A stretch of 64,000 bases of DNA from a virus (IMGVR_UViG_3300013005_000022:54443-118442); one strand, 5' to 3'; shown: positions 13,094 to 49,883, counted from the first letter of the stretch. Notes: generated by a model from the letters alone, not told the origin. Translations and numbers: made by a program.

Positions 13094-13771
13094 ATGATTA
13101 AGCCAATTAAAGGTACATTTAAAACCTTTCATGATTACATTAAAATTACCGGACATAACGATAAAGAGCTAGATCCCAAGCAATTCACTAGAATTGATAC
13201 GGAAGAGAAGGTCCTTTATCTAACTTTTGATACATGTCCAACCAGCATAGTAGATTTTAGTATCATCAATTGGTTAATAGAAAATAAAATACCAGCAACA
13301 ATATTCCTAAATATTGAATGGTATAAAGAAAACAAATCAAAAGACCTATCATTCTTACAATCACCGCAATTTGAAATCGGTGGTCATGGATACGAACATA
13401 AACGTCCTGCCAATCAAGATTTCCGAGAACAAACATATGATATTGATTCTTGTGTAAATTTTATTGAGAATGAGGTAAAACGAAAGGTAAAATGGTATCG
13501 TTCACCTTACGGAAAACCTAACGAAGACACATTTAATATCCTAGATCCTTTAGGAATTAGATATGCATCTTGGGCAGGACATGTATTCGATAAGAGTGCA
13601 CCAGAGTTACCTAATCCAAACAAAGTTGCATTAGCTTATTTAGCACAAAATACTCAGCCTGGAAATATTCTCGTATTTCATATTAATGGTGAAGGATTTA
13701 ATTCGCTTGAGATCTTAAAGATTGCATATACTTGGGCAACTGAACATGGATATTCGTTCAAAAAGCTATAA
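13094..13771 (+). CDS. polysaccharide deacetylase (NodB/CE4)-like protein
   Basis: LTFDTCP (TFDDG-like motif 1) and GGHGYEH (HxxxH-like motif 2) in NodB order; weak. Confidence 0.35.
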   Translation: MIKPIKGTFKTFHDYIKITGHNDKELDPKQFTRIDTEEKVLYLTFDTCPTSIVDFSIINWLIENKIPATIFLNIEWYKENKSKDLSFLQSPQFEIGGHGYEHKRPANQDFREQTYDIDSCVNFIENEVKRKVKWYRSPYGKPNEDTFNILDPLGIRYASWAGHVFDKSAPELPNPNKVALAYLAQNTQPGNILVFHINGEGFNSLEILKIAYTWATEHGYSFKKL

Positions 13772-19627: not shown

Positions 19628-20038
19628 GTGGAGAACCACATACCTACATTCGAATCATTTTTAAACGAATCAAAAGCCGTTGATTCCGCAATGGATAAAA
19701 TAGAAGTTTTGCCTAAAGGATCTACATTCGAAGATGCAAAACGAATAGATGGTATATTCGATAGAAGCAAACATACTTGGAGTGAAGTTATTGAAACTTT
19801 TGAAAAAAACCAAAAGGCGGCAAAACCTAAAATGGTAAATGTAAAAGATATTCAAATAACTCAACCAAATATTCAAAGTAATAAAGTAAAGGCAATGATT
19901 GAAAAATACAACAAATTGCCTTTAATTAATGTAGTTCAATTTCCTGATGGATTGGCAATATATGATGGACATCATCGTCTATTAACTGCTTGGTCCATGG
20001 GAGAAACTAAAATCAAAGTTAATCTCGTAAAAATATAA
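19628..20038 (+). CDS. HIPTFE-FLNE family protein 1 with ParB-like nuclease domain
   Basis: GTG start; N-terminus ENHIPTFESFLNESK; C-terminal FPDGLAIYDGHHRLLTAW matches the ParB/Srx DGHHR motif. Confidence 0.6.
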   Translation: MENHIPTFESFLNESKAVDSAMDKIEVLPKGSTFEDAKRIDGIFDRSKHTWSEVIETFEKNQKAAKPKMVNVKDIQITQPNIQSNKVKAMIEKYNKLPLINVVQFPDGLAIYDGHHRLLTAWSMGETKIKVNLVKI

Positions 20039-20044
20039 AACATA

Positions 20045-20263
20045 ATGGGACACATACCAACATTTAACGAATTTTTAAACGAATCCAAAAAGCACAAATT
20101 AAGTGTAGGTGATTGGGTTGAATTTGATAACGATAAAGCTAGAGTAGAAAAGGTTTACTTTGCTCGTAACGGTAATGCCATGTATACTATCGGTAGTTCT
20201 AAACACGGAAATATTGATGTTGAAGCTGAAGATCTAGACGAAAACAAAACAAAAACCGCATAA
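20045..20263 (+). CDS. HIPTFE-FLNE family protein 2
   Basis: N-terminus MGHIPTFNEFLNESK; C-terminus unrelated. Confidence 0.55.
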   Translation: MGHIPTFNEFLNESKKHKLSVGDWVEFDNDKARVEKVYFARNGNAMYTIGSSKHGNIDVEAEDLDENKTKTA

Positions 20264-20739
20264 TGAACAATCACATACCTACATTTGATACATTTCTTAA
20301 TGAAGAAAGAGTATATGGAATGTTCAATGACTCTCAAGGAAAACCATCTAAAATATCACAAGAAATTCTAGATATTTGTTTAAAAGCATTTCCCAAAACT
20401 ATCATTGATAATATTGAATCAGTAGAAGCTGCTGGTTATGGAAAAACCAACATGGTTTCGCCTCCTACTATTTCTAATAAAGGTCAATCACGAGGTTATA
20501 ACGATTACACATCAATTACATTAATCTTTCAAAAACCAATGGGTAGAATGAAAGTTACCGAAATGTCAGTTGGTATTCGTAAAAGAACTTCTGGTCCTGG
20601 AACCGGATATATCGCAATTGATATGACTGCTAGTGGTCATATGATTCCTGGAGCTGAATGTGCAGTTGAATTCTGGTCAGATGATCCAGTTCATTTTTTA
20701 GATAAATTATACAATGAAAAAATCAAAGCATTTTTATAA
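20263..20739 (+). CDS. HIPTFE-FLNE family protein 3
   Basis: N-terminus MNNHIPTFDTFLNEER; C-terminus unrelated. Confidence 0.55.
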   Translation: MNNHIPTFDTFLNEERVYGMFNDSQGKPSKISQEILDICLKAFPKTIIDNIESVEAAGYGKTNMVSPPTISNKGQSRGYNDYTSITLIFQKPMGRMKVTEMSVGIRKRTSGPGTGYIAIDMTASGHMIPGAECAVEFWSDDPVHFLDKLYNEKIKAFL

Positions 20740-20996
20740 TGAAACATATACCTACATTCGAAGACTTCTTAAATGAAGGATTTATTAAACCTTATGGTGA
20801 GAAAATGAAAGTTGAAGACTTTGCTAAAATCGAGGTAGGGAGTGAAATTCTTTATGCTGGTGCACCTTATGAAGTTGTTAAAAACGATGGAGTTACTCTA
20901 CATTTGAAACCTTCTAAGAATTCTTATGGAATCACCGGAAAAGCTCATAAAGTTAATTTCTCTATGTTCAATACCGCTGGAGCAATCCGTGATTAG
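20739..20996 (+). CDS. HIPTFE-FLNE family protein 4
   Basis: N-terminus MKHIPTFEDFLNEG; C-terminus unrelated. Confidence 0.55.
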   Translation: MKHIPTFEDFLNEGFIKPYGEKMKVEDFAKIEVGSEILYAGAPYEVVKNDGVTLHLKPSKNSYGITGKAHKVNFSMFNTAGAIRD

Positions 20997-21082
20997 ATGA
21001 ATCTTCATAAATTTCAAATCATATAATTAATACTATAAGTCTAAGGACATGATCCGCTTGTAGTAAAAAATATCTACATGTT

Positions 21083-22444
21083 TTGAAATTAAGACAAGGG
21101 TTATTATTCCTAAAATCTCTACACACCAGATCTAAATCCGATGAAGAAGTTCTTCAATGGATTGAATCTAGACGATCATTAGTTAAGCATACAATTCAAC
21201 AAATTGATCTTAATAAACTAAATGGTTGGAAATTCTACGATCATAAAATTGAACATACTTCTGGTAAATTCTATCAAATTCATATTAGACGTAATGAGTT
21301 AGATGGAAGAGGATGGGATCAACCTATAATCAATCAACCTGAAATAGGTATTCTGGGATTTATTACCAAACAAATCAATGGGGTACTTCATTTTCTAGTT
21401 CAAGCTAAAATTGAACCAGGAAATATCAATATAGTTCAGCTATCACCTACTGTACAATCCACTAAAAGTAATTTTACAAAAGTTCATGGTGGAGCACTTA
21501 CACCATTTGTAGAATACTTCTTAAAAGGCGAATCGAGAATCCTAGTGGATCAGCTACAATCCGAACAAGCTAGTAGATTTTTTCAAAAACGTAATCGTAA
21601 TATCATCATCGAAGTTGAAGATGAGTTATCACATGAAAATTATTTATGGATGACCCTTGGAGATCTTGTTGCATTAACTAGATATCCTAATACAGTGAAC
21701 ATGGATAGTCGAACCGTTTTAAGTTGTATTCACTTTGGTTCATATTCATTTGAACATTTAGAGCTAAGAGATTTTCTTGGTGGAATTCAACATGATTCCT
21801 CTTGGATAGATTCTCTACTTCGTAAAGACGTATATCAGAAATCATATCCAGAAATTCTATCTTTAATCACCGATCTTAAGTTTAGAAGAGAGGCTTCAAC
21901 CAAGCTAATTTATCTTTCGGAAACACATGATTGGAATTTAATAGATGGTAAGATAGTACACAAAGATGAGAAGTATTTCGACGTAGTGGGTTATCGTATA
22001 TTCATTGAAAATCGTGAATCTTCTCAATGGGATCAACCTCTTATTCAACCTAAATCTACTGGAATATGTTGTTTCTTTGCTCGTAAATTTGATGGAGTAT
22101 TTCACTTATTAGTTCAACTAAAAGATGAAATTGGATCTTTTGATGGTGTTGAAATGGCACCAACAATTCAAATGTCTGAAGAAAATCTAGATCTATCTCC
22201 TTTCTTTGAGCAATACAGCTCTTTAATAAATACTGATTCTGTTTTATTTGATGTTATGCAATCCGAAGAAGGTGGAAGATTTTATCAAGAACAAAATAGA
22301 AATATTGTCATAGAAGTTAATGAAGATTTAGAACTTCCAAGGAATTACATTTGGATGACTCTTAATCAACTAAAAACCTTCTTACAATATAACAATTACG
22401 TGAACATACAAACACGTTCAATAATGTCATCTTTACCTTTATGA
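21083..22444 (+). CDS. NDP-hexose 2,3-dehydratase (EvaA/TylX3-like)
   Basis: 453 aa with internal duplication typical of this family: QPEIGILGFITK...GVLHFLVQAKIEPGN and QPKSTGICCFFARKFDGVFHLLVQLKDEIG, each followed by ...RNRNI(I/V)IEV. Confidence 0.75.
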   Translation: MKLRQGLLFLKSLHTRSKSDEEVLQWIESRRSLVKHTIQQIDLNKLNGWKFYDHKIEHTSGKFYQIHIRRNELDGRGWDQPIINQPEIGILGFITKQINGVLHFLVQAKIEPGNINIVQLSPTVQSTKSNFTKVHGGALTPFVEYFLKGESRILVDQLQSEQASRFFQKRNRNIIIEVEDELSHENYLWMTLGDLVALTRYPNTVNMDSRTVLSCIHFGSYSFEHLELRDFLGGIQHDSSWIDSLLRKDVYQKSYPEILSLITDLKFRREASTKLIYLSETHDWNLIDGKIVHKDEKYFDVVGYRIFIENRESSQWDQPLIQPKSTGICCFFARKFDGVFHLLVQLKDEIGSFDGVEMAPTIQMSEENLDLSPFFEQYSSLINTDSVLFDVMQSEEGGRFYQEQNRNIVIEVNEDLELPRNYIWMTLNQLKTFLQYNNYVNIQTRSIMSSLPL

Positions 22445-23397
22445 AAGTAGCTATACTAAATTGCTCAGATATTGGAAAACGCAGAATGATTCCTGCATTT
22501 CAGGCAATCCCAGGTATTGAAGTAGTTATTGTTTGTAGTAGAGATATTCATAAAGCTCAAAGATATGCAGAGGAATTTGGAATTCCAAAATGGACAGACA
22601 ATCCGGATGATATTATTGGAGTTGATCTAGTTTATATCTCATCGCCTCCATCTGAACATTTTGATTCTATTAAAACATTTTTACGAAGAAAAATTAATGT
22701 TCTTTGTGAAAAATCCCTAACAATAGATGCCTATCAAACAACATATCTAATTAATTTAGCAGATAAAAACGGAGTTATACTTCAAGAAAATTATGGATTC
22801 CCTTTTCATACTCAATGGAACTGGATAAATGAAAATCTTAATCGAATAGGTGAGATCTTATACATTAGAAGTGGATTTGAATTTCCTCCAAGAGACACAA
22901 AAACAGATTTTCGTTATAAGGCTGCTCTTGGTGGTGGTGCTCTTTTTGATGCCGGTGGATACCCCATCAAGTTAGCTTCTTTGCTAATGGGAACACCACA
23001 AAGGCTAGATGCGGTTACTCATCTATCAAAATCTCTAGATATCGATCTTTCAGGAAGAACATTTATCATCGATGATATGGGAATATCTGCATTTTTAACC
23101 TGGAGTTTTGAATCAACTTATCGTTGTGACGTGGAAATCGTTGGAACTCGAGGAACTATTAAAGCGGATAAAATATTTACTCCTAGAGTAGATGAATCTG
23201 TTAAAGTAAGCCTTTCTCTTATTGAAGGAAATGTTAACGAATCACATGAATTTGTTTGCGATCATTTCGTGGAACTTATTCGAGATCTTAAAATCAAGAT
23301 AGAGAATAAAGATAATTCTCATCATAAAAGTATATTAAAACAATCAAATTGGCAAACATATGTATCGTCTACTAGTATCAGAACCTTCACTAACTAA
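22441..23397 (+). CDS. Gfo/Idh/MocA-family NAD(P)-dependent oxidoreductase (sugar ketoreductase candidate)
   Basis: N-terminal Rossmann MKVAILNCSDIGKRRMIPAF...VVIVCSRD; EKSLT (EKP-like) motif; family size. Confidence 0.6.
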   Translation: MKVAILNCSDIGKRRMIPAFQAIPGIEVVIVCSRDIHKAQRYAEEFGIPKWTDNPDDIIGVDLVYISSPPSEHFDSIKTFLRRKINVLCEKSLTIDAYQTTYLINLADKNGVILQENYGFPFHTQWNWINENLNRIGEILYIRSGFEFPPRDTKTDFRYKAALGGGALFDAGGYPIKLASLLMGTPQRLDAVTHLSKSLDIDLSGRTFIIDDMGISAFLTWSFESTYRCDVEIVGTRGTIKADKIFTPRVDESVKVSLSLIEGNVNESHEFVCDHFVELIRDLKIKIENKDNSHHKSILKQSNWQTYVSSTSIRTFTN

Positions 23398-24442
23398 CTT
23401 TGAGGAATTTGCAAATCTTGCAAAAGAAGTTTGGGAAAGTGGAATCCTAACACATAACGGACCTAAAGTCAAAGAACTTGAACAAAGGTTAAAAGAACAA
23501 TGGCAGATTCCTCATCTATCATTAGTTACAAACGGAACTATTGCACTCGAAGTTGCAATGAGAGCTTTAGAACTTCCTAAAGGAAGTGAAATTATTACAA
23601 CTCCATTTACCTGGATTGCAACGGCATCGGCTATTCAATGGCAAGATTATGAACCTATTTTTGTTGATATTGATCCTTATACACTTAATATCGATCCATC
23701 TAAAATTGAAGAAAAAATCACAGAAAGAACATCTGCTATTTTAGCAGTTCATGTATTTTCAAATCCATGTGATGTGGTTTCTATTCAAGAAATTGCAGAT
23801 AAACATGCATTAAAAGTTATTTACGATGGTGCTCATGCCGTTGGTGTAAAATTCAGAGGTGTAGATCTTTCTCAATTCGGAGATATTACAACTCATTCAT
23901 ATCATGCAACAAAAATTTACAATACTGGTGAAGGTGGATCTATCATTACCAGAAATCCTGAGCTAGCTAAACGTATAGAAAGACTTCGTTTCTTTGGTCA
24001 TAACGAAACGAAAGATATTGTACATGAAGGAACTAATGCTAAAATGCATGAGATATCTGCAGCAATGGGATTAGCTAATTTGAAGATGTTACCTAAAACG
24101 ATTATACATCGACAGTTACTAACTCTTATGTATAAACATCGTATGGATGGTCTTCCGGTTCGTTTTCAAGAAATCAATAAAGACTCTTATAATTACTCAT
24201 ATTTCCCAATCATATTTGAATCAGAAGAACAATGTCTTAAAGTATATGCGGCATTAGAAGCAATTAAAATTATGCCTCGTCGTTACTTCTATCCATCGGT
24301 TAATGAATTCAAAATTTTTGATTCTCAACCATGTCCAGTTAGTGAAGATGTTTCAAAAAGAGTTCTTTGCCTACCATGTCATGATGGTGTAACTCTTATG
24401 GATATCGATGAAATTACCGCAACTATAATTAAAACCTTCTAA
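23360..24442 (+). CDS. DegT/DnrJ/EryC1/StrS-family PLP-dependent sugar aminotransferase
   Basis: Family signature around the PLP lysine: DITTHSYHATKIYNTGEGG; N-terminal GPKVKELEQRL. Confidence 0.8.
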   Translation: MYRLLVSEPSLTNFEEFANLAKEVWESGILTHNGPKVKELEQRLKEQWQIPHLSLVTNGTIALEVAMRALELPKGSEIITTPFTWIATASAIQWQDYEPIFVDIDPYTLNIDPSKIEEKITERTSAILAVHVFSNPCDVVSIQEIADKHALKVIYDGAHAVGVKFRGVDLSQFGDITTHSYHATKIYNTGEGGSIITRNPELAKRIERLRFFGHNETKDIVHEGTNAKMHEISAAMGLANLKMLPKTIIHRQLLTLMYKHRMDGLPVRFQEINKDSYNYSYFPIIFESEEQCLKVYAALEAIKIMPRRYFYPSVNEFKIFDSQPCPVSEDVSKRVLCLPCHDGVTLMDIDEITATIIKTF

Positions 24443-24443
24443 T

Positions 24444-25058
24444 ATGCACATAGTTATAGGAGCTAATGGATTAGCTAAACAAGTACTTCCTTTGTATAAT
24501 AGAAATCCTCGAGTTATCTTCTTTGATGATACTGATGAAGCAGAAGAGAACCTATATGAGCATAAAATCATTCACGAACTTCAACCAATAAAGGACTATA
24601 TTTCAGAAGGTGGTGATGTAATTTTCTCAATTTGTATTGGAAATCCTAAATGGCGAGAGTACTTCTTTAATCATCTAGTTAACTTAGGCGCCACACCAAT
24701 TAATATCTTATCGGAATTATCTTCCATTCAAGAGAGATCCGAGATTGACACAGGGAACATCTTATTAGACTATACCTTGGTGGAAACTGATGCAAAAATT
24801 GGAATAGGCAATCTTATAAATTGTTATGCAGGTTTATTCCATGATTCAGAAATTGGAGACTTTAATGAGATCATGCCAGGAGCTAAAATTCTAGGCGGTG
24901 CCAAAATTGGAAACTTTTGTAGAATAGGAACTAATGCAACAATTCTTCCAAAAATCCAAATTTGCTCTGGTGTTATTATTGGAGCCGGAGCCGTGGTAAC
25001 CAAAAATATTACCGAGCCAGGAACTTATATTGGAATTCCTGCAAGGAAACAAGGATAA
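24444..25058 (+). CDS. NeuD/PglD-family hexapeptide-repeat sugar N-acetyltransferase
   Basis: N-terminal MHIVIGANGLAKQV Rossmann-like; C-terminal left-handed beta-helix hexapeptide repeats (IGNFCRIGTNATI.. IGAGAVV). Confidence 0.7.
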   Translation: MHIVIGANGLAKQVLPLYNRNPRVIFFDDTDEAEENLYEHKIIHELQPIKDYISEGGDVIFSICIGNPKWREYFFNHLVNLGATPINILSELSSIQERSEIDTGNILLDYTLVETDAKIGIGNLINCYAGLFHDSEIGDFNEIMPGAKILGGAKIGNFCRIGTNATILPKIQICSGVIIGAGAVVTKNITEPGTYIGIPARKQG

Positions 25059-25080
25059 ATAACAAAATACAACAATATTA

Positions 25081-25962
25081 ATGGAATTTTTAAAGTATAA
25101 AAACTTCGTTCTTAATGAGCAAACTAAATGGGTTAATTTAGAAACCGTTAACGAAGCTGCACTTACTGCTACTCCAGATAAAGGTGTTAAGTTTGGTATC
25201 TGTATCACTACTTACAAAATTGATTCTGGTGGTAGACAAAATCACATGTCCACCGAAAAAGTTCTGAGAGAATGTTTAGAGTCAGTTAAAGCACAGAGTT
25301 GGCCAGAATGGAAAGTCTACATCATGGGTGATGCATATCCACAAGAAGAATGGCCGGAAATTGAAAAACTTGCTGCATCTATCGTTCCAAAAGATAAACT
25401 TTGGATGGATAATTTAAAAACGCCGGGAGAAAGAGACAAATATGATGGATCTATCCCGCATCTGACTGGAGGAAACACAGCGGCAAACGCTACCATCGCT
25501 CAAATGAAAAAAGATGGTATTAAATATTTTGCACGTCTTGACCATGATGATGCCTGGAAAACTGACCATTTAAAAACTCATGCTACCGCATATACACAAT
25601 ACCCAGAAGTTGTTTATAGTTTAACACAAGCCCGTAAGAAAAGAGTTAAAGGCGATACCGGTTCATACATGTATTTCCCGGACAAAGGAACTTATGAGAA
25701 TGCGGAGAATAACTACACTTTAGGTCTTGGTGGACAATGTCATTCTGCAATGACTTGGAAAATGGAACCTTTAAAATATATCAAGTATCGTACTTGGGAT
25801 CAGCAAAAAGCTACGCAACCACGTAGAAAAGAATGCTTTCCTGGCGATTGGGATAACACCGAAAGAATTAAAAGAATCGTAGAAGATGATAGTAACAAGC
25901 ACTCGATGATTTACATTCCAAAGTTAACTGTAAAATATCGAAATTCAGAAGGAAAATTCTAA
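25081..25962 (+). CDS. GT-A fold glycosyltransferase (family 2-like)
   Basis: KFGICITTYKIDSGGR...LESVKAQSWPEWKVYIMGD and DxDD-type motif ARLDHDDAW. Confidence 0.5.
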   Translation: MEFLKYKNFVLNEQTKWVNLETVNEAALTATPDKGVKFGICITTYKIDSGGRQNHMSTEKVLRECLESVKAQSWPEWKVYIMGDAYPQEEWPEIEKLAASIVPKDKLWMDNLKTPGERDKYDGSIPHLTGGNTAANATIAQMKKDGIKYFARLDHDDAWKTDHLKTHATAYTQYPEVVYSLTQARKKRVKGDTGSYMYFPDKGTYENAENNYTLGLGGQCHSAMTWKMEPLKYIKYRTWDQQKATQPRRKECFPGDWDNTERIKRIVEDDSNKHSMIYIPKLTVKYRNSEGKF

Positions 25963-25963
25963 C

Positions 25964-26539
25964 ATGAAAAAACTACTATTCTTATTAATCTTATGTCTTC
26001 CATTTTTTGGATATTCGCAAGATACATTAGTAAAACGACCAATCTATACTGTAAAGTATTCCCAATCTCTACAACAACCTCTTTGGTTAGAGTATTCAGT
26101 CAAGCACCGTGATTGTGGAGCAAAACGAGATGGAATGGATTTTTATACCGAAAAAGGAATTACAACAAGCGACAATGCTGATTATGCTGAGAACGTATAC
26201 GATAAAGGTCATATGGCTCCTGCAGCAGATTTCTGTGTTAATCGCGAAACTCTATTACTAACATTCTCATATTTGAATTGCGCTCTACAACACTACAAAT
26301 TAAATAGAGGAGTTTGGAAACAACTCGAAGCAAACGAACGTGAGTGGTCTAAAACTGATTCATTAATTATTCGAATCGATGTTATATTTGAAAAGGGTGC
26401 CACTAAATTACCTAGTGGAGCAACGATCCCTACTGCTTTTAGAAAGACCATCACATTCTATAACGCTAAAAAGAAGGTTGTTTACTACTTCAAAAATGAA
26501 CCTCCTACAAAACCACTAGATGCTTATCTAGTTAAATAA
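25964..26539 (+). CDS. secreted DNA/RNA non-specific endonuclease (Serratia/EndoG family)
   Basis: Signal peptide MKKLLFLLILCLPFFGYSQ; active-site-like YDKGHMAPAADF (DRGHxAP motif). Confidence 0.6.
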   Translation: MKKLLFLLILCLPFFGYSQDTLVKRPIYTVKYSQSLQQPLWLEYSVKHRDCGAKRDGMDFYTEKGITTSDNADYAENVYDKGHMAPAADFCVNRETLLLTFSYLNCALQHYKLNRGVWKQLEANEREWSKTDSLIIRIDVIFEKGATKLPSGATIPTAFRKTITFYNAKKKVVYYFKNEPPTKPLDAYLVK

Positions 26540-26546: not shown

Positions 26547-26634
26547 TTGTTAATAACTTTCAGACCCGAGATTTTTTAATCTCGGGTTTTTGTTTTATAT
26601 TTGTAATATCAAATTAAATATAAAACACATATAC
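26547..26634 (+). promoter_or_regulatory. conserved promoter cassette with embedded terminator hairpin, copy 3 of 8
   Basis: TTGTTAATAACTTT; hairpin GACCCGAGATTTTTTAATCTCGGGTTTTTG; TATATTTGTAATATCAAATTAAATA. Confidence 0.65.
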
Positions 26635-27027
26635 ATGCAAAAGATTAGTGCTCAAGTTGTTCTCATTAATGAGGAAGGAAAAATTCTCTGTGTTTCTAGA
26701 AAAGATAATCATTCTGATTTTGGTTTACCTGGTGGTAAAGCCGATCCTGAAGATAATGGTGATCCTATTCTAACTGCAATACGAGAAACAAAGGAAGAAA
26801 CCGGTTTAGATGTACATGATCTAAAACTTATATTTGCAATTCACAAATATGGTTACATGAATTATACATTTGTAGCCAAGTATTCTGGTGAAATCAATTT
26901 TGACGAACCACACATTGTTAAATGGGCACCAATCAAATTAGCAACTGAAGGAACCTTCGGTGTATACAATCAATTAGTTGCCGAATCCTTAAGAGATTCA
27001 AATTACGAATTTATTAGACACTTTTAA
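26635..27027 (+). CDS. NUDIX hydrolase
   Basis: Nudix box GGKADPEDNGDPILTAIRETKEETGL (Gx5Ex7REUxEExGU); start moved to the ATG after the promoter core. Confidence 0.85.
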   Translation: MQKISAQVVLINEEGKILCVSRKDNHSDFGLPGGKADPEDNGDPILTAIRETKEETGLDVHDLKLIFAIHKYGYMNYTFVAKYSGEINFDEPHIVKWAPIKLATEGTFGVYNQLVAESLRDSNYEFIRHF

Positions 27028-42498: not shown

Positions 42499-43098
42499 AT
42501 GGCTAAAAACGAATCATTAAAGGAATTAGGAATCGAGTTTAAAGAAACTAGATCAGAACGAGTATTCACCGATTTATATCATCGTCTTAAACCAGGGTTA
42601 ACAAATTACGTATTTCAAATCGTAAAAGATTACGATATGTCTAATCATATTGTTTCTAGCGTAATGTCTGAGGTTTATAACAAAATCGATAAATACGATC
42701 CTAAATGGCATATCTCTACATGGATTTATCGTATTGCATATACACATGCTTGTGGTTATCTTCGAGCTAAAAAAGTTCAACGAACGGTTTCTCTATCCGC
42801 ATTCGATAACGATGAAAATCGCAATCGTCTACATAAACTAGAATTCGATTCTATCGAAGATCACCGTGATGCTATTGAAAAACGTGAAGATGAAGATGCG
42901 GAAAAAGCTCATGTTAATTATCTTCGTACAATCGTCGATAATTTACCAATTGAATATCGTGAAGTGGTTGTGGAAAAATTCTACAATGATTTAAAGTATG
43001 ATGAAATCGCTGCCAAGCTAAATATTCCACTTCATACCGTAAAAAACCGAATTTCACGAGGTAAACGAATCATTCAAGAGGAACTCACCAAAAAATAA
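42499..43098 (+). CDS. RNA polymerase sigma factor, sigma-70 family (ECF-like)
   Basis: Region 2-like YRIAYTHACGYLR; region 4 HTH DLKYDEIAAKLNIPLHTVKNRISRGKRIIQEEL. Confidence 0.75.
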   Translation: MAKNESLKELGIEFKETRSERVFTDLYHRLKPGLTNYVFQIVKDYDMSNHIVSSVMSEVYNKIDKYDPKWHISTWIYRIAYTHACGYLRAKKVQRTVSLSAFDNDENRNRLHKLEFDSIEDHRDAIEKREDEDAEKAHVNYLRTIVDNLPIEYREVVVEKFYNDLKYDEIAAKLNIPLHTVKNRISRGKRIIQEELTKK

Positions 43099-43221: not shown

Positions 43222-45144
43222 ATGAAGAAATTGCTTAAATCATTTTTACTGATGATTATTTTAGCTCTTCCGATTCTTACATTTGCACAATCCGGTCCAC
43301 CGGCACCAAGTGCAGGAATTTGGGCTTTAATAGATACTAACTATACAGTTGGTACTTCAACAGTAGGAATCTCTCAGGCTAAAATCACTCTAAAAAATAC
43401 AACGGCTACTTTATATACCGGTGTTCAATTTAGAGTATTTTACGACAAAAATGCTTTCTCATCAGCATCAGTTGCTTTGTTAGGATCTACTACAAATTTA
43501 TATTTACAATCAGTAGATAACAACACAGCAGGTTATGTGACTATCTCTTTAGTTTATACAGGAAGTAGTTCTGCATATACATTAGCCGATGGAGAAAGAT
43601 TTGAACTTACGTTTAACCACGTATCTCCGGCAGCATTCTATGCTTTGCCATCGATCAGTGCATTAACTTGGACTGGTTCTGCTACTTACACTCAAGTGGC
43701 TGCTGAACAAAGTGGTTTAGATACCACTTTAAGTTTACACAGCTATGGTGGAAACTGGTTACGTCCAGAACTTGATTACCATGGTACATTTACTAACGTA
43801 ACTGGTACTGGTGCAAAAAACCTTACTCTTGCATTAGAGAAAAAAGTTAAGATTGGTGGAACATGGGGAACTCATGCAACATACATAACAGACATTAATG
43901 GAGACTTTGCATTCTCAGAAATTATCGATACAACATATTATGATGTTCGTTTAGCAGTTCAAGGAGATTCCATGACTGTTGGTAACGTTATTTCAACTGC
44001 CGATGCTCAGTTAATTAATCAATGGGTTCTTGGTGGAGCTACTCCTACAGGATTCGATTTTTATACCGGAGATGTTAATGGATCTAATGGAATATCGATC
44101 ACTGATGCTTATGGAGTATTTGGAAGAATCGCTGGTAGATTCTCTACTTGGCCTAACTCAGTTAAAGATGTTAAATTCTTTACCGCTGCTGAATATGCAA
44201 CTATTACCGGAACACCATCAACAAACTTTACTGGATCTATCCCCGGAGTTACCAACTTCTATTTTGATATTCTACCTGGAGCACCTGATAGTGTAACTTA
44301 TTATGTATGTGTACCTGGTGATGCAAATGGAACCGGTTATAATATGGCTCGTTTAACCCCAATTGACGTGGTAATCAATCCACCAGCTGGAACTCCTGCA
44401 CAACAAGAAAACGTAGTAGATATGAAAGTTGAATATGACTTTCCTACATCTTCTATGGAAGTTAGATTACCTTCATTATCAGTTAAAGAAGGAAACCTGG
44501 TAGAACTTCCTGTTAGTGTACATACAAATGGTCAAGATATTTCTGCTTTACAACTTTCAATGTTATACGATCAAACTCTTTTACAATTCAAAGATGTTCA
44601 AAACTCACCAAAAGCAATGTTTTGGATGTCTTCTATCAATCCTACTGGAGGTATTGTAGAATGGTCTGGATATGACCCATCAGCGAACAAATCATATATG
44701 ATACCTGATGGTTATGAAGTATTCACTCTTCGTTTTTTGGCTCTTAAACCTCAAAATGAATGGAATCAATCACCTTTATATACAACTAGAAAATTTTCAG
44801 GAAATTCAAATTCTAAAGACATGACAATTACTCCAGCTAATGGAATTCTAATTGTTGCTAAAATGGCAAATGTTGGTGGAATCTTAGACGAAAGAGAAAT
44901 GACAGTTTTTCCTAATCCTACTACCGGAGAAATCACGGTAGAGTTTAGTGTAAAACAGACTGGTCCAGTTAAGTTATATATAGTAGGTATGAACGGAGTT
45001 ATATCTCATGTAATTCTTGATAGAGATATGCCAGAAGGTGAATACATTTATACTTCTAATATCAATCATCTTACTCAAGGAATATATGTGGCTTCATTAC
45101 AAGCTAAAAATCAAAAAAACTCTGCTAAAATAATTAAAAACTAA
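43222..45144 (+). CDS. secreted protein with type IX secretion system C-terminal sorting domain
   Basis: Signal peptide MKKLLKSFLLMIILALPILTFAQ; C-terminal ~80 aa VFPNPTTGEITVEF...VKLYIVGMNGVI...LTQGIYVASLQAKN..SAKIIKN matches the T9SS type-A CTD pattern. Confidence 0.75.
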   Translation: MKKLLKSFLLMIILALPILTFAQSGPPAPSAGIWALIDTNYTVGTSTVGISQAKITLKNTTATLYTGVQFRVFYDKNAFSSASVALLGSTTNLYLQSVDNNTAGYVTISLVYTGSSSAYTLADGERFELTFNHVSPAAFYALPSISALTWTGSATYTQVAAEQSGLDTTLSLHSYGGNWLRPELDYHGTFTNVTGTGAKNLTLALEKKVKIGGTWGTHATYITDINGDFAFSEIIDTTYYDVRLAVQGDSMTVGNVISTADAQLINQWVLGGATPTGFDFYTGDVNGSNGISITDAYGVFGRIAGRFSTWPNSVKDVKFFTAAEYATITGTPSTNFTGSIPGVTNFYFDILPGAPDSVTYYVCVPGDANGTGYNMARLTPIDVVINPPAGTPAQQENVVDMKVEYDFPTSSMEVRLPSLSVKEGNLVELPVSVHTNGQDISALQLSMLYDQTLLQFKDVQNSPKAMFWMSSINPTGGIVEWSGYDPSANKSYMIPDGYEVFTLRFLALKPQNEWNQSPLYTTRKFSGNSNSKDMTITPANGILIVAKMANVGGILDEREMTVFPNPTTGEITVEFSVKQTGPVKLYIVGMNGVISHVILDRDMPEGEYIYTSNINHLTQGIYVASLQAKNQKNSAKIIKN

Positions 45145-45470
45145 TGTCAGAAGAAACACAAGATCACAATGACGGAACTTGGTCAGGTCTAAAGAAAACT
45201 CTTATTGGAACAATTTCTACAGCAGTACTTGCTGGAGGAACTTGGTTAACCACTACTTTATTTAATGGCGGTAGTGACGATAAAGAAGAAACTAAAACTG
45301 AACAGGCTGCTCCAGCTCCTGTTATTGTTAACGTTCAACAAAATCAAGAGAACACTCAAAAACAACAAAACAATGGTGGTACCAACACTATCATCAGAGA
45401 AAGAGTTATAGAGAAACCTGTTGAAAAGAAAGAAGAAAAGAAAAAAGAATCTGAGGATGCTCCTTGGTAA
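45144..45470 (+). CDS. membrane-anchored protein with disordered Lys/Glu-rich tail
   Basis: One transmembrane helix (LIGTISTAVLAGGTWLTTTLF); start overlaps upstream stop. Confidence 0.45.
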   Translation: MSEETQDHNDGTWSGLKKTLIGTISTAVLAGGTWLTTTLFNGGSDDKEETKTEQAAPAPVIVNVQQNQENTQKQQNNGGTNTIIRERVIEKPVEKKEEKKKESEDAPW

Positions 45471-45489
45471 ACTAAAAACAAATAAAAAA

Positions 45490-45780
45490 ATGGCTAAATT
45501 ACAAAACACCAAACCAAACTTCTTTAAGCGAATGTTTATGGATGATAATGATATTAATGAAAAATCTATCGTTGGATTCTGTGCATTTTTAGTAATGTGT
45601 ATTGCATTTGGAGTTGATATTTACACCGGAATTAAAGGTATGCCTTTTGAGATTAACGAATTCATTTTTGATGGATTTATGGTTATCACTTTAGGTGCAT
45701 TCGGTATTGCTTCAGTTGACAAATACATAACTGGAAAGAAAGGCGTAAGTTCATCTAATGATGAGACTCCAGTAGAATAA
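45490..45780 (+). CDS. small membrane protein
   Basis: Start moved to the internal ATG after the upstream stop; two hydrophobic helices. Confidence 0.45.
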   Translation: MAKLQNTKPNFFKRMFMDDNDINEKSIVGFCAFLVMCIAFGVDIYTGIKGMPFEINEFIFDGFMVITLGAFGIASVDKYITGKKGVSSSNDETPVE

Positions 45781-45793
45781 AAAAATAAAAAAC

Positions 45794-46513
45794 ATGAAAG
45801 CACTTATAACTTTTATAATGCTGATATTTTTTGCTCAAACTAGTATTGCTCAGATTGGCACCGTCAAGTCTGAGCAATACCAAGCAGAGTTTGAGAAGAA
45901 GCAATCACTCGATGCTTTACCAGAATATACAGACACAATCAAGATTCCTATTCAGATTCTTAAAATCGGAATCAATGAAGAGTTATACGAAATGTATCCT
46001 GAATTGAAAGATAAAAGAGTTGGATTAGGAGTAACTAATATTGTTCTTGAATATCTCGAATACACCAATCGTTTCGTTTTTACTGAAGATAAACTTGAAA
46101 TTAAAGAGCGAATGGTTCAACAATTTAAAGCATCTGATAAAGGCTTTACTGAAAATAAAATCGACGGTAGAGGAAAGATTAAGTTAGCTAAATACTTTGT
46201 GTATATAGAAGTCTATGATTTTTCGGTATCCGATGATGAAGTTGTAAAGATTAACGGAGAATCCAAGACTACTCAGATAACTCGTTTAGGATTACAAGTT
46301 AAATTCGTAGATGCTGAAACCGGAGAGATTATTATGGGATCTGGACTCGGAGAAGCTACTACCGTTAAGACTGCTACTATTTTAGATGGGGTTGACGATA
46401 GTGATATTAAATTCAATCAATCACATATTGGTATAACTACCAAGAAATCTCTTGAAACGGCATCTTCTAGAATCGTTGCAAGAATGATAAAAAAAGGAAT
46501 TTTCAAATCGTAA
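45794..46513 (+). CDS. secreted hypothetical protein
   Basis: Signal peptide MKALITFIMLIFFAQTSIAQ. Confidence 0.55.
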   Translation: MKALITFIMLIFFAQTSIAQIGTVKSEQYQAEFEKKQSLDALPEYTDTIKIPIQILKIGINEELYEMYPELKDKRVGLGVTNIVLEYLEYTNRFVFTEDKLEIKERMVQQFKASDKGFTENKIDGRGKIKLAKYFVYIEVYDFSVSDDEVVKINGESKTTQITRLGLQVKFVDAETGEIIMGSGLGEATTVKTATILDGVDDSDIKFNQSHIGITTKKSLETASSRIVARMIKKGIFKS

Positions 46514-48208
46514 ATGTATGTTAGAAAATTCATATTCTTTTTTGTATTTTTGTTTATTACAATTGCAAGTTACGGTCAGACATTCAATTACTCGTATACT
46601 GACCCTTGTACTGGTGTAATAAAAACTATGCAGGTTCCATCAAATGGAATAACCATAACTTATTATGGACAAGTAAACACATTCCAACCATCAGATTTCT
46701 ATAATGGTGGTTTTGAGAGTTGGGCTCAAGGAGTCTATTCTTCATTTGGTAACAACAATCCATGTGCATCAGTGGTAGGTCTTCCTACTGGAATTAATAT
46801 TGCACAAAACACTGCAACTAATTTCTTAAGTATAGTAAATTCATTATCAGCTATTAGTGATTTGGCTGCATTGAATGGAGCTACCAATATTCTATCTGGA
46901 GTAGGTAGTGTATCAAATGCAAGTGGAAAAAAGGAAGAAAATAAAAAAGGAGGAAATGGTACACCAAATACTAACTCTGGAGGAAGTACACAAAATTCTG
47001 GAGGAAGCTCTACTACTCCAGGAACCTCAGGAAATCAAGGAACTTCTTCTGGAAGCTCAGGATCTTCTACTACACAAGGATCAAACAATACAGGTTCATC
47101 TCAATCACCTCAGACAGGAGGTCAATCGTCTCAGTCACCTGTAGGATCTCAACAAAATCAAACCGGAACAAATGGAAACAGTAGCAACAGTAGTACCAAT
47201 AGTAATTCTAGTGGGACTAGTAATACTAGCGGTAATACAAACAATACTCAACCTTCAACTGGGTCAAATCAAACCCAAACCGGAGGAACACAAACTGGCA
47301 ATACATCGTCTGGAAGCACAAATGCAAATAGCGGCAATGCTAATCAAGGTGGGAGTGGAACCTCAAGCGGCAATGGATCGAGCGGCCAAAATAGTAGCGG
47401 ATCATCTTCGTCCGGAGGATCTTCTGAAGGAAGTGGAACAGGAAATCAGCAAGGAGGAAGTGAAGCAACAAAAAGCGAAGAAGGCGGCAAAACGAACCTA
47501 GTTGGTGGATCGGTTGCATCTATAGGTAATTCAACTAATTCTGGAAGTGGATCTGCATCGAGCGAAAGTAGAAGACCAACTATACTTGCTAGTAGTGATT
47601 TGGTTGGATTTAATTTTAAAGATTCTGATGTTAGCAAAGGAGGTAAATTTACCGGAGGTTATACATCATTAAGATGGGATGGACAAAGATCTCACGGATT
47701 TTTAGTCGATTATACAACCGCTCTTAAAGGACCTAATGTTACTGCATTCTATGCATATATCAAGAAGAAAAGAATTGATTTGATATCAACTACTCTTACA
47801 TTAGGATTCGATAGAAAAACTTCAGTATATGGAACTTTGGCCGTAGGTCAAATGTGGAACATTGATAAAAAGAAAAAACTTAAAGCCGTTTACATGTTAA
47901 CCGGATCCTTTGGTAGTGTATACGAAGAAGCTTTCGTTGGAACCGCTGCAATTGCCGGTGTAATGTACGATTTAAAAGTTTCAAAACGAATAGATATTAA
48001 ACTAATGGGGCTATATGTCTATGCTCCTTATGTTAGTTATTATAATGACATACTACTAAAATCTCCTCATGTAGTTCTTCCTATCATTGGAACTAACATT
48101 GGACTTACGAAGAGATTTAAGTTAAACATAAATGGTGGTGGCGCTTGGGCACTAAACGAAAATGCACTGAACTACACCATAATGATGGGTACTAGATTTT
48201 TATTATGA
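46514..48208 (+). CDS. secreted protein: signal peptide, ~230-aa Ser/Gly/Thr/Asn/Gln low-complexity region, C-terminal outer-membrane beta-barrel-like domain
   Basis: Signal peptide ...ITIASYGQ; long low-complexity region; C-terminal alternating-hydrophobic strands ending ...GTRFLL (aromatic terminus typical of outer-membrane barrels). Confidence 0.55.
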   Translation: MYVRKFIFFFVFLFITIASYGQTFNYSYTDPCTGVIKTMQVPSNGITITYYGQVNTFQPSDFYNGGFESWAQGVYSSFGNNNPCASVVGLPTGINIAQNTATNFLSIVNSLSAISDLAALNGATNILSGVGSVSNASGKKEENKKGGNGTPNTNSGGSTQNSGGSSTTPGTSGNQGTSSGSSGSSTTQGSNNTGSSQSPQTGGQSSQSPVGSQQNQTGTNGNSSNSSTNSNSSGTSNTSGNTNNTQPSTGSNQTQTGGTQTGNTSSGSTNANSGNANQGGSGTSSGNGSSGQNSSGSSSSGGSSEGSGTGNQQGGSEATKSEEGGKTNLVGGSVASIGNSTNSGSGSASSESRRPTILASSDLVGFNFKDSDVSKGGKFTGGYTSLRWDGQRSHGFLVDYTTALKGPNVTAFYAYIKKKRIDLISTTLTLGFDRKTSVYGTLAVGQMWNIDKKKKLKAVYMLTGSFGSVYEEAFVGTAAIAGVMYDLKVSKRIDIKLMGLYVYAPYVSYYNDILLKSPHVVLPIIGTNIGLTKRFKLNINGGGAWALNENALNYTIMMGTRFLL

Positions 48209-49878
48209 GAAAGTTTATCACCACACTAATTGCCGTTTTGGTAACATGTGCTACATATGCACAAACGTTTACATATTCAGGCTACATCTATAACGCAAAT
48301 GGTACCGGAGCAGTAAATGTTCCAGTAAAGTTGTATAAGAGAACAACTCCAGTATTGACTGGATTCACATCTCAAACAAATTATAACGGTCACTCATATT
48401 ACCGATCAACTAGTAGTATGACTTGGACTGCTGCAAAAACTGCATGTGAAAATATGAACGGTCACTTAGCTACCGTATCTAATGCAGCGGAAAATAATTT
48501 CCTATTCAATACTTGGCCATCTGGTTGGATTGGTTATTATCAAGATAAGGTTGGTGGATATACTTATTCAGAACCGGCCGGTGGATATCGTTGGACTGAA
48601 AGTAAAGTAACTTCCGGATTAGCATCGGATTATGATGTTTCATCTTATACATCAGGATCTACTTTAACTGATATCAAATCAAGTATTAATGCCACTCTTT
48701 ATAATACTCCATCATACTCTAGTACAGGAGGAAAGTACTTAGCATTTAATGGATCTAATCAATATGCAATTACCGGCGATTTAGCTTCTAAATTCTCTTC
48801 AACTGCAATATCAGTAGTTACATGGATTTATCCTACAGGAAATGGTGTTATTGCATCAGAATTAAATATTGCAAGTCCTACATCCGGATGGCATGAATCT
48901 ATAATAGAAATCACTGGGTCTAATACTCTTCGAATCGGTCTTTGGAACGGAACTGGAATTACTCAATTAAGCACTGCTATTACTCTTAATACCTGGAATA
49001 TGGTTTGTATTACATATGATGGAACTACAATGAGAGGATATCTAAATAATGTGAGTTTTGGTAGTGTTAACTTTTCTCGTCAGGCAGCCTTTTTACATAG
49101 TGGTAATGGACAACAACATTTTGCATTCGGTTTAAGTGATGCAACCCATATGGGATCTGGTGCTTATGGTTCTTTTAGATTAGGACTTATTCAATTTTTC
49201 GATAGAGCAATTACCGTTGATGAAATTGATAGAACTTTCAATTTTTATGCATACCGTTATCGAACAAACCAATATACAAATTGGAATCCCGGAGAACCTA
49301 ATGATGCAGGAACCGAAGACTATGCTCAATTTGTTGGTGGTGGAAAATGGAATGATCTTCCGAATATGTCTCTTCCTTATGTGATTGAATTTGATTATGT
49401 TGTTGGATTTACTTCATGGGTTTTACATCAAACAGTTTATACGAATTCATCAGGATTCTATTCATTTTCTCAGGCATCAAATCCATCAGTTGAATGGTAT
49501 ATACAAATTGATGCACCTACTCCTGTAACTATTCATCAAACTTCGGATTTAAGTTCAATAGGAAATATTGTATTAGGTAGTACTACCAAGAAATCTTTAC
49601 ATTGGAATATGTTCGATGTGAATAACGATGGAAATATAACAGTATCCGATGCATACTATGTGAGTGGAAAGAAAAATGGAATATTTGCCAGTTGGATAGG
49701 ATCTCAAAGATCTGCTCTATATACGATTGCTCAATTTAATGCACTTAATTCTGGAACAACTAATTTAAAGGCAACATATCCAGGAGTAAGTTCTTTTACG
49801 ATATCTACTCCAGTGAGTGGCGGATCTACAAATTATTATCTAATAGCTCCAGGTTATGCTGGACAAGTAACATATTAA
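48205..49878 (+). CDS. secreted C-type lectin-like protein with large inserted domain
   Basis: Signal peptide ...VTCATYAQ; CTLD N-half WTAAKTACENMNGHLATVSNAAENNFL..WIGYYQD and C-half WNPGEPNDAGTEDYAQFVGGGKWNDLP separated by a ~230-aa insertion. Confidence 0.6.
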   Translation: MRKFITTLIAVLVTCATYAQTFTYSGYIYNANGTGAVNVPVKLYKRTTPVLTGFTSQTNYNGHSYYRSTSSMTWTAAKTACENMNGHLATVSNAAENNFLFNTWPSGWIGYYQDKVGGYTYSEPAGGYRWTESKVTSGLASDYDVSSYTSGSTLTDIKSSINATLYNTPSYSSTGGKYLAFNGSNQYAITGDLASKFSSTAISVVTWIYPTGNGVIASELNIASPTSGWHESIIEITGSNTLRIGLWNGTGITQLSTAITLNTWNMVCITYDGTTMRGYLNNVSFGSVNFSRQAAFLHSGNGQQHFAFGLSDATHMGSGAYGSFRLGLIQFFDRAITVDEIDRTFNFYAYRYRTNQYTNWNPGEPNDAGTEDYAQFVGGGKWNDLPNMSLPYVIEFDYVVGFTSWVLHQTVYTNSSGFYSFSQASNPSVEWYIQIDAPTPVTIHQTSDLSSIGNIVLGSTTKKSLHWNMFDVNNDGNITVSDAYYVSGKKNGIFASWIGSQRSALYTIAQFNALNSGTTNLKATYPGVSSFTISTPVSGGSTNYYLIAPGYAGQVTY

Positions 49879-49883
49879 ATATC

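Follow-up and report, generated by a model that had tools for sequence, protein, structure and literature searches.

The DNA analysed here is a 64-kb stretch of a viral genome (IMGVR_UViG_3300013005_000022:54443-118442; the window, in what follows), and positions 21083-25962 inside it hold a cassette of five genes that is most likely a virus-encoded system for nucleotide-sugar tailoring with a dedicated transferase, of the DNA-hypermodification kind. The predicted product, of which we are largely confident, is dTDP-4-acetamido-2,4,6-trideoxyhexose. The proposed acceptor, to which we assign a probability of about 0.5, is a modified cytosine (5-hydroxymethyl- or 5-hydroxycytosine) in the phage DNA, or a sugar already attached to the base. 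The sugar chemistry is new for phages, the transferase belongs to a phage-specific family, and it carries an unexpected leader sequence.

The five open reading frames (ORFs) listed in an earlier analysis made from the nucleotide sequence without database searches (the sequence-only reading) were all recovered at the same positions on the + strand, where they abut with junctions of -4, -38, +1, and +22 nt. They encode, in order, an NDP-hexose 2,3-dehydratase of the EvaA/VinD type (DH; 21083-22444, 453 aa, TTG start, two PF03559 domains), a C-3 ketoreductase of the Gfo/Idh/MocA family and the KijD10/VinE type (KR; 22441-23397, 318 aa, PF01408 and PF22725), a pyridoxal phosphate (PLP)-dependent sugar aminotransferase of the DegT family with probable C-4 specificity (AT; 23360-24442, 360 aa, PF01041), a left-handed β-helix N-acetyltransferase of the PglD/VioB/NeuD type (NAc; 24444-25058, 204 aa, TIGR03570, Hexapep, and PglD_N), and a GT-A-fold glycosyltransferase (GT; 25081-25962, 293 aa, PF00535, AlphaFold model, and Foldseek). 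The catalytic residues are kept in all five (DH E111/E161, KR K91/Y174, AT K185, NAc H133, and GT D154-H-D-D157). With respect to the orthologues in L001 (L-numbers are the labels of the related viral or bacterial loci that were compared), dN/dS is 0.05-0.16, the lowest values being those of DH (0.05) and GT (0.05), and all five genes are under purifying selection. The GC content of the cassette is that of the remaining window. The four pathway enzymes are acidic, and the GT is basic (pI 8.7). The family, structure, and residue matches described below uphold the earlier proposal of a phage-borne, complete-looking deoxy-amino-sugar pathway accompanied by a GT-A transferase.

The DH contains two Nudix-like PF03559 stretches in tandem (E = 3.5e-136, 451.5 bits) and matches EvaA (4J7G, E = 8e-88) with both EvaA domains aligned. 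E111 (in AKIEPGN) and E161 (in LQSEQAS) align with E139 and E190 of EvaA, both of which are essential by mutagenesis (PMC8987622). The profile search, the EvaA match, and the presence of these pocket-A glutamates bear out the assignment of the 453-aa protein as a 2,3-dehydratase, which would convert dTDP-4-keto-6-deoxyglucose into dTDP-3,4-diketo-2,6-dideoxyglucose.

The best solved relative of the KR is KijD10, a "sugar 3-ketoreductase" (3RBV, E = 2.4e-37), and the next match in the PDB reaches only 1.6e-20. Lys91 (in EKS) and Tyr174, whose equivalents we take to be the catalytic residues of KijD10, are conserved, and the start codon of KR overlaps the stop codon of DH (ATGA). KR also lies next to DH in the viral loci L001-L004, L006-L008, L011, and L016. 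The AT is a clear member of PF01041 (E = 9e-91), and its best matches in the PDB are DesI (2PO3, E = 5e-51) and the perosamine synthase PerA (E = 3e-42), both of which are C-4 enzymes. The Schiff-base residue Lys185 (in HATK) is present and aligned with the DesI lysine, so that the AT is assigned as a transaminase rather than as a dehydratase of the ColD type. The NAc is aligned to TIGR03570 over positions 3-201 of 202 with 159.6 bits (cut-off, 160.8) and to PglD_N with 22.4 bits (cut-off, 23.4); its matches in the PDB are PglD (3BSS) and VioB (7TXP), at E values of about 1e-21 to 1e-20, while QdtC, which acts at C-3, is matched only at 1e-7. H133 of the NAc (in LFHDSE) aligns with the catalytic histidine of PglD (in IEHEC), presumably His125.

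The assignment of the product as the 4-acetamido sugar follows from these relationships, because the KijD10-type step would leave only the C-4 keto group, the AT is nearest to C-4 enzymes, and PglD and VioB acetylate 4-amines. In the proposed route, dTDP-4-keto-6-deoxy-D-glucose from the host RmlA/RmlB or from phage genes outside the window would be converted by DH to the 3,4-diketo-2,6-dideoxy sugar, which the KijD10-like KR would reduce at C-3 and the DesI-like AT would aminate at C-4; the PglD/VioB-like NAc would then acetylate the amine to give dTDP-4-acetamido-2,4,6-trideoxyhexose, and the soluble, basic GT-A enzyme would transfer the sugar onto a hydroxyl. The window encodes neither RmlA nor RmlB, and its only short-chain dehydrogenase/reductase (SDR) is GDP-fucose-synthase/ColC-like, so that the precursor is expected to be supplied by the host or by genes elsewhere in the phage genome, in agreement with the supply from outside that the sequence-only reading had supposed.

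That reading had expected a 3-amino-2,3,6-trideoxy product. For such a product the AT would act at C-3, as EvaB and DnrJ do, and the KR at C-4, which would yield an N-acetylated 3-amino-2,3,6-trideoxyhexose of the acosamine/ristosamine type. In the DegT family, sequence does little to tell C-3 from C-4 enzymes, QdtB and WbpE (both of them C-3 enzymes) are matched by the AT at E values of about 1e-38, and the best NCBIfam model of the AT, the DesI model TIGR04427, is matched at 249 bits, well below its equivalog cut-off of 650, which counts against the proposed C-4 regiochemistry. On the other hand, the one strong solved relative of the KR is a C-3 ketoreductase, the best matches of the AT are C-4 enzymes, and the NAc, with its N-terminal domain and catalytic histidine, is of the PglD/VioB type that acts on 4-amino sugars. 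C-3 chemistry would moreover need a Gfo/Idh/MocA 4-ketoreductase; 4-ketoreductases of NDP-sugars are normally SDRs, and in P. copri the DH-KR pair is accompanied by a separate RmlD-like SDR. A C-3 amine is accordingly improbable, and the KR, AT, and NAc together point to 4-acetamido-2,4,6-trideoxyhexose instead. Because the DesI equivalog model is matched so far below its cut-off, the regiochemistry is something that we infer, and these sequences allow no prediction of the configuration at C-3 and C-4.

The closest characterized counterpart of the pathway is the route to dTDP-vicenisamine in the vicenistatin cluster of Streptomyces (VinA, VinB, VinD, VinE, VinF, and VinG, with the glycosyltransferase VinC), which shares the core of 2,3-dehydratase (VinD), Gfo/Idh/MocA-type 3-ketoreductase (VinE), and aminotransferase (VinF) and likewise has a dedicated glycosyltransferase (PMC11284099). 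Unlike vicenisamine, which is N-methylated, the phage sugar would be N-acetylated by the PglD-like enzyme. The window also lacks equivalents of VinA and VinB (RmlA and RmlB), the acceptor would be no polyketide, the genes are viral, and the phage GT has the GT-A fold. Glycosyltransferases of natural-product pathways are typically of the GT-B fold.

Among 80 bacterial loci (L020-L099), KR adjoins DH in 72, and about 35 have the collinear order DH-KR-AT of the phage cassette, with an orthologous AT (47-58% identity); in L041, from a metagenome-assembled genome of Flavobacteriaceae, an acetyltransferase gene follows directly. This shared order, the overlapping or abutting genes, and the VinD/VinE/VinF precedent are counted in favor of the proposed pathway. 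The bacterial DH-KR-AT(-NAc) modules are the likely source of the phage cassette; the bacterial loci hold Wzx/Wzy and other glycosyltransferases, and no homologue of the phage GT was found in any of the 80. The module occurs in Bacteroides, Alistipes, Flavobacterium, Cyclobacterium, and some Proteobacteria and Verrucomicrobiota (e.g., L041, L059, L072, L082, and L095). Its gene content implies a 4-amino-2,4,6-trideoxyhexose in the surface glycans of those bacteria, and the module is apparently uncharacterised, as our literature search found no paper describing it or its product. Six bacterial loci have the variant order DH-AT-KR with a WecE-like AT, which was considered as a C-3 control and set aside; WecE is also a C-4 enzyme and thus gives no contrast.

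The sequence-only reading had also taken the 2,3-dehydratase to be rare outside natural-product clusters, and this part did not hold. When one genome per bacterial species was scanned, at least 585 species, mostly Bacteroidota, were confirmed to carry a relative among the 600 matches listed, to none of which the window DH is more than 48% identical; the copy in P. copri lies in a Wzx/Wzy polysaccharide locus. The review literature still casts 2,3-dehydratases as antibiotic-pathway enzymes. Among 50,697 records of deposited phages, no match was obtained to the cassette (megablast) or to DH (tblastn), and the KR gave only weak matches there (24-31% identity); likewise, no paper on any phage 2,3-dehydratase was found in the literature. 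DH occurs in at least three lineages of metagenomic phages (IMG/VR and other metagenomic contigs). In the window's own clade, L001, L002, L008, and L016 have all five genes (84-96% identity for L001, L002, and L008; 48-78% for L016), and L003, L004, and L006 have DH-KR-AT only. DH-KR-AT-GT is kept in L007, of a PolB/C5-methylase clade, and a 405-kb contig (L011) has DH with a different partner set. An SDR in L007 was considered as an RmlB-type 4,6-dehydratase and ruled out, being a homologue of GDP-mannose 3,5-epimerase. The 2,3-dehydratase is thus new for phages and commonplace in bacteria: an enzyme treated as one of natural-product synthesis is widespread in surface-polysaccharide loci of Bacteroidota and present in these phage lineages, and its spread suggests that common bacteria of the gut and of aquatic habitats make a 2-deoxy sugar yet to be characterised.

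The GT is matched by PF00535 only weakly (35.9 bits, residues 59-99 only), and it has neither a relative in the PDB detectable by sequence nor a match in PHROGs. An AlphaFold (AF2) model built with 22 homologues has a pTM of 0.80, with the N-terminal leader lying outside the GT-A core. The best Foldseek matches are AvpGT, WrtF, SpsA, RmlT, and TarS (E = 1e-10 to 1e-8), and many GT2 enzymes are matched with a probability of 1.00 and a TM score of about 0.5; by this model the GT has the GT-A fold. The DHDD motif (residues 154-157), which lies within (R/K)LDHDD, is invariant across the family alignment. No transmembrane segment is present, the highest 19-residue Kyte-Doolittle score being 0.59, and each family member that was examined is basic (pI 8.3-9.2). 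All 101 members of the family come from metagenomes, and every genomic context that was examined is viral; the family has so far been seen only in viral or metagenomic contigs. In L012, L100, and L198, the GT is accompanied by an AT and a PglD-like acetyltransferase in the absence of DH and KR, from which it appears that the family handles 4-acetamido sugars and that 2-deoxygenation is a lineage-specific addition.

The neighbors of this family are the main reason for proposing a DNA acceptor. Forty-eight viral loci carrying the GT family were collected, and genes within 10 kb of GT were scored; a cytosine-modifying enzyme is found in 27 of them. In 24 loci, typified by L100, a C5-cytosine methyltransferase, an APH-like kinase, a nucleotidyltransferase, a second glycosyltransferase, and a histone-like Hc1 gene lie within this distance. 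In three others and L012 itself, the genes for a homologue of thymidylate synthase (ThyS) and a dCMP deaminase form one contiguous run with those for SDR, DegT, NAc, and GT proteins. The seven loci of the window's lineage have GT near the tail tube and topoisomerase II genes, with sugar genes that vary or are not detected and no base-modifying enzyme in reach, and the remaining 14 contain more distant or partial members of the family and none of these markers. ThyS and GT are contiguous in L012, L200, L226, and L227, and it is to this ThyS-linked group that the window GT is closest (61-62% identity). The ThyS homologue of the L012 type shares 53% identity with the "dCMP hydroxymethylase" found in T4-like phages of Acinetobacter, and in the PDB, CMP/dCMP hydroxymethylases (MilA and T4 gp42) outscore most canonical ThyA entries; the L012 enzyme also shares about 55% identity with a "thymidylate synthase" of 234 aa (PDB 9IQU/9IQC), and no paper for entry 9IQU was found in the literature. 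At the position of the dUMP-specifying Asn of ThyA, a position whose significance is documented in references listed by PMC13326640, the homologue has Asp. From this genomic association we infer the acceptor; substrate and step order are likewise proposals. Among the possible targets listed by the sequence-only reading, phage DNA is now the best supported, by the association of the GT family with cytosine-modifying enzymes.

The same ThyS homologue is encoded by IMGVR_UViG_3300009158_000031, the 254-kb contig that holds L001, the closest relative of the window. This copy (L246), which was found by a broadened alignment scan, is 56% identical to that of L012 and has Cys159 and Asp190. It is followed by a protein of about 435 aa (63% identical to its L012 counterpart), in which an E-x8-E-A-M stretch resembles the EX7E motif of GT-B enzymes, and then by a thymidylate-kinase-like P-loop protein; the three genes lie at about 3.5-8.2 kb of the L246 contig and at 3414-5949 of L012. 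The triad is probably a base-replacement module, and the window's own genome, judged from its closest relative, presumably encodes the ThyS homologue as well. The lineage would thus very probably replace cytosine before replication, which would supply the hydroxyl needed by a DNA glycosyltransferase. The basic character of the GT family and the lack of a transmembrane segment in the window GT also argue for DNA. A genome hypermodified in this way would be protected from host nucleases. Neither the ~435-aa protein next to ThyS nor a 337-aa protein next to the C5-cytosine methyltransferase has a match in Pfam or PHROGs, and scans with narrow peptide patterns found no C5-cytosine methyltransferase in the window's lineage. 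Hc1 (a Chlamydia-type histone-like protein of 58 aa) is encoded directly 3' of GT in 24/24 loci of the C5-methylase lineage (L100, 9954-10130; L201-L225 and L234), and an Acb2/Tad1-like anti-CBASS hairpin protein is encoded nearby in the P0187 contig.

Known DNA hypermodification of phages includes the glucosylated 5-hydroxymethylcytosine (5hmC) of T4 and the arabinosyl-5-hydroxycytosine of RB69 and DLP3 (PMC13326640), as well as the clusters described by Pyle et al., in which GT-A-fold phage enzymes glycosylate 5hmC in DNA. Those clusters contain a C5-cytosine methyltransferase with a TET-like oxidase (5mYOX) or ThyS homologues, APH/HAD kinases, nucleotidyltransferases, and ParB-like proteins, and some of them lie among structural genes (Pyle et al.). 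As in these systems, the lineage studied here has, to judge from the contig of its closest relative, a putative dCMP-type ThyS homologue along with a kinase; it also has a soluble GT-A enzyme whose relatives adjoin ThyS, dCMP deaminase, C5-cytosine methyltransferase, APH/HAD, nucleotidyltransferase, and second glycosyltransferase genes, and a dedicated sugar-supply pathway beside the GT. The sugars reported on phage DNA are hexose, N-acetylhexosamine (HexNAc), and heptose (Pyle et al.), and arabinose (PMC13326640), whereas a deoxy amino sugar is predicted here; the GT also differs in its N-terminal leader and in lacking the EDY/F motif, and ThyS is encoded some 130 kb away. The GT is therefore not to be filed in the GT-A family of Pyle et al. 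(JGT/TarP-like), with which it was compared by way of the motifs they describe and structural matches. If the sugar is placed on DNA, viral hypermodification chemistry would widen from glucose, arabinose, HexNAc, and heptose to a deoxy amino sugar, which would matter for how such genomes withstand restriction enzymes and modification-dependent nucleases, for the ways in which they can be sequenced and cloned, and for labelling DNA enzymatically.

Residues 1-13 of the window GT (25081-25119) form a leader, MEFLKYKNFVLNE, that resembles the capsid-targeting sequence (CTS) of T4, MKTYQEFIAE (PMC8442874). The strict leader pattern is present in 69 of the 82 full-length members of the GT family, and members of 229-278 aa lack the entire N-terminal extension. 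In the window, the leader, M(x)xHIPTF(E/D/N)xFLNE, recurs on four tandem small genes on the + strand between the tube gene and DH (19628-20996; 136, 72, 158, and 85 aa), whose products are candidate internal (ejection) proteins and have nothing but the leader in common with each other and with the GT; among the 86 ORFs of the window, the motif is limited to these four and the GT. In L001 (5498-9915), ten leader genes stand in tandem at the same place, again with unrelated bodies and the leader alone shared, and another copy, MNKLPTYQEFLNE, lies beside the ThyS gene of the L246 contig (1611-1952). Further examples are MKHIPTFEDFLNE and MKPIKLYKEFINE. The motif was found in 53/723 viral ORFs, all on the coding strand, and in 2/2858 bacterial control ORFs. 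The small protein encoded at 19628-20038 ends with a ParB/Srx-like DGHHR motif.

The internal proteins of T4 are described as diverse anti-restriction proteins that share only the CTS (PMC3012670). IPI, IPII, and IPIII resemble the proteins described here in being unrelated small proteins with a leader of 12-15 residues, T-(Y/F)-x-x-F-(I/L)-x-E, that ends in Glu, and the present array is likewise tandem and hyperplastic, with an (L/I)-x-E leader site. In contrast to T4, the leader also occurs on an enzyme (the GT, about 295 aa), and the phage is only distantly T4-like; the leader proteins are mixed in charge and not uniformly basic, so that the likeness to T4 internal proteins does not extend to charge. 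Among the window ORFs that were scanned, none was recognisable as a prohead protease gene. The resemblance to the T4 CTS appears close both in sequence and in gene organisation, which by analogy makes packaging or ejection of the leader proteins, as internal proteins, likely. The array is counted as a neighbor associated with the cassette and not as a component of the pathway. In an uncultured clade of huge phages of Bacteroidota, the leader may offer a tag by which proteins that are packaged or ejected can be predicted from sequence. A more specific and rather doubtful version of the DNA proposal is that the N-acetylated 4-amino-2,4,6-trideoxyhexose is placed on a dCMP-hydroxymethylase-derived base (or on a first sugar) by a leader-bearing GT that is packaged in the capsid and delivered with the genome alongside the internal proteins; if so, neither a deoxy amino sugar nor a 2-deoxy sugar would have been found on any DNA before.

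Several observations weigh against DNA as the acceptor. The window itself contains no ThyS-like protein, C5-cytosine methyltransferase, or TET/5mYOX protein, and ThyS lies about 130 kb from the cassette in the genome of the relative, which is co-occurrence and not adjacency. The independent lineages are few (two or three), as the 24 loci with C5-cytosine methyltransferase represent one and the ThyS-linked loci another. The EDY/F motif of the GT-A enzymes of Pyle et al. was not found in the GT, whose structural neighbors are GT2 enzymes that build glycans or small molecules and not JGT or TarP (both of these fall outside its best 50 matches in the PDB, and TarS falls within them), although such neighbors say nothing decisive on the acceptor. 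DH-KR-AT occurs without GT at the locus in L003, L004, and L006, and GT occurs without detectable sugar genes nearby in L208 and L212. DNA is placed at only about 0.5 because of the ~130-kb separation, the small number of lineages, and the absence of the motif set of Pyle et al.

The same sugar might instead be attached to virion or capsid-internal proteins, such as the Ser/Thr/Gly-rich insertion of the sheath, the capsid, or the leader-bearing small proteins, where it would shield the particle or tune adsorption; parallels would be the glycosylated capsids and tails of mycobacteriophages and the fibrils of giant viruses, which bear viosamine-type sugars. The cassette comes directly after the sheath and tube genes and the array of leader proteins, within the late structural block, as do the virion-glycosylation genes of mycobacteriophages; the GT remains among structural genes in L208 and L212, and passages of PMC12619734 and Pyle et al. 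describe capsid proteins of PBCV-1 glycosylated by GT-A enzymes and mycobacteriophage virions glycosylated by enzymes encoded beside structural genes. The CTS-like leader shared with the putative internal proteins would place the GT in the prohead, and an early promoter-like 23-mer (described below) is absent from 6.1-26.6 kb, with a conserved T4-late-like CATATAA sequence 5' of DH. With all genes on one strand, however, a place among the late genes says little, and the DNA clusters of Pyle et al. can also stand beside structural genes; in two other lineages the GT family sits amid genes for replication, nucleotide metabolism, and DNA modification, and no acceptor motif or glycoprotein was identified. 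A virion target is considered possible but unlikely. Less likely still are the envelope glycans of the host (lipopolysaccharide O-chain, capsule, or Bacteroidota protein O-glycan), whose modification would block superinfection or decorate the secreted proteins of the phage itself. Bacterial homologues of DH-KR(-AT) do lie in Wzx/Wzy surface-polysaccharide loci; a second glycan cluster of the window, with ColD and ColC-like colitose genes and four glycosyltransferases (GT11, GT10-like, GT2, and GT32-like), resembles O-antigen chemistry; signal peptides are present on at least seven proteins of the phage, one of which has a sorting domain of the type IX secretion system (T9SS), and lectin-like domains are encoded as well; and Iyer et al. 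read the sugar clusters of jumbo phages as "capsular polysaccharide modification systems" (PMC7824862). The window lacks, however, a flippase, a polymerase, an initiating phosphoglycosyltransferase, or a Gtr-type membrane component, and a Pfam scan of window ORFs revealed no component of a Gtr-type seroconversion set (GtrA flippase, membrane-anchored GtrB, and GtrC). The GT has a phage-specific leader, no membrane segment, and no homologue in the 80 bacterial loci, and its relatives sit with DNA-modification genes. Virus-encoded sugar tailoring with glycosyltransferases is also known from the capsular systems of jumbo phages (cyanophage P-SSM2) and from the viosamine pathway of Mimivirus (aminotransferase L136 and acetyltransferase L142) (PMC7824862), but these systems have no 2,3-dehydratase or 2-deoxy sugar. 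The structure of Mimivirus L136 (7MFO) is among the distant matches of the AT.

The spacer 5' of DH (20997-21082, + strand) contains a CATATAA core at 21020-21026, a candidate promoter of the T4 late type. The core is invariant in five diverged relatives, in which the rest of the spacer is unalignable (L004 reads TATAAATA), and this conservation is weak evidence for a late promoter 5' of DH. A shared late promoter in the form of the 10-mer ATATAATTAA, which occurs 5' of the sheath gene and DH, was rejected as not significant (3 found, 1.24 expected). Downstream of GT, a gene at 25964-26539 (+ strand) encodes a DNA/RNA non-specific endonuclease of 191 aa with a signal peptide (PF01223, E = 4.6e-24). 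Its conservation does not follow that of the cassette, as it was also seen in L001, L002, and L008 and was not detected in L016 or L003-L006; lying on the cassette side of a terminator-like hairpin, it may be co-transcribed with the cassette. The hairpin (26562-26589, + strand), a 12-bp stem followed by a T run, closes the block in which the cassette and the nuclease gene lie. The Nudix gene of the window lies past the hairpin and behind its own promoter-like motif and is therefore not counted in the cassette. The Nudix gene found again near GT, in L100 and in the P0187 contig, is no orthologue of the window gene (no tblastn match), and Nudix was dropped as a member of the system.

This promoter-like motif is a 23-nt sequence, TATATTTGTWATATCAAATTAAA, which contains the Bacteroidota -7 box TAnnTTTG and is present in 8 copies (0.02 expected), starting at 3427, 6053, 26596, 27121, 40802, 42094, 42456, and 52188 on the + strand. 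It is usually preceded, about 25-30 nt upstream, by TTGTTAATAACTTT, and no copy lies in the structural block at 6.1-26.6 kb; it probably represents an early or middle promoter class. The motif creates spurious N termini of ORFs (MFYICNIKLN...) at 3421, 26590, and 52182, and the Nudix gene of the window probably starts at 26635.

The window is phage DNA, with genes for a large terminase, a sheath protein of 1086 aa, a tail tube, a T4-type baseplate protein, topoisomerase II, PhoH, SmpB, and an extracytoplasmic function (ECF) sigma factor. The nearest deposited relatives of the sheath all belong to huge phages (LR756500, 43%; Tenacibaculum phage PTm1, 38%; and Lak, 33%). Cleavage of signal peptides before Gln is the "Q-rule" of Bacteroidetes, and because such signal peptides occur here together with a protein that has a T9SS sorting domain, the host is almost certainly a bacterium of the Bacteroidota. 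The lineage may belong or be close to the freshwater "moraphages", the description of which in PMC12619734 covers four core glycosyltransferase families and mentions no dehydratase or aminotransferase.

The second glycan cluster (58198-63210) encodes the GT32-like (Gly_transf_sug), GT2, GT11 (α-1,2-fucosyltransferase-like), and GT10-like enzymes, a GDP-L-fucose-synthase/ColC-like SDR (E = 5e-57), and a ColD-type 3-dehydratase dependent on pyridoxamine phosphate (PMP) (E = 3.5e-51), in which His replaces the PLP lysine. The sugar to be expected from these genes is GDP-colitose or a related 3,6-dideoxyhexose; a GDP-mannose 4,6-dehydratase was not found in the window. The region 43222-50782 holds a run of genes for secreted proteins with signal peptides that end before Gln, among which the product of 43222-45144 has a cohesin domain and a C-terminal T9SS sorting domain and that of 48205-49878 has C-type lectin and ConA-like domains; the ECF-type sigma factor gene (42499-43098) is just 5' of the run. 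The phage thus appears, from these domains, to export proteins via the type IX secretion system of its host.

No tRNA or tmRNA genes were found in the window, and it encodes SmpB (2933-3373), an enzyme of the CCA-adding/poly(A) polymerase family (3783-4514), an "RNA-binding protein" of PHROG 850 (1295-2881), and an RNA-repair HAD of the "Swiss Army Knife" type (55110-55673). A polysaccharide deacetylase gene (13094-13771; PF01522, E = 2e-21) lies immediately 5' of the large terminase gene. In L016 (16352-19136), the gene for the A subunit of topoisomerase II is split by an intein, with an Intein_splicing domain and a DUF7487 protein.

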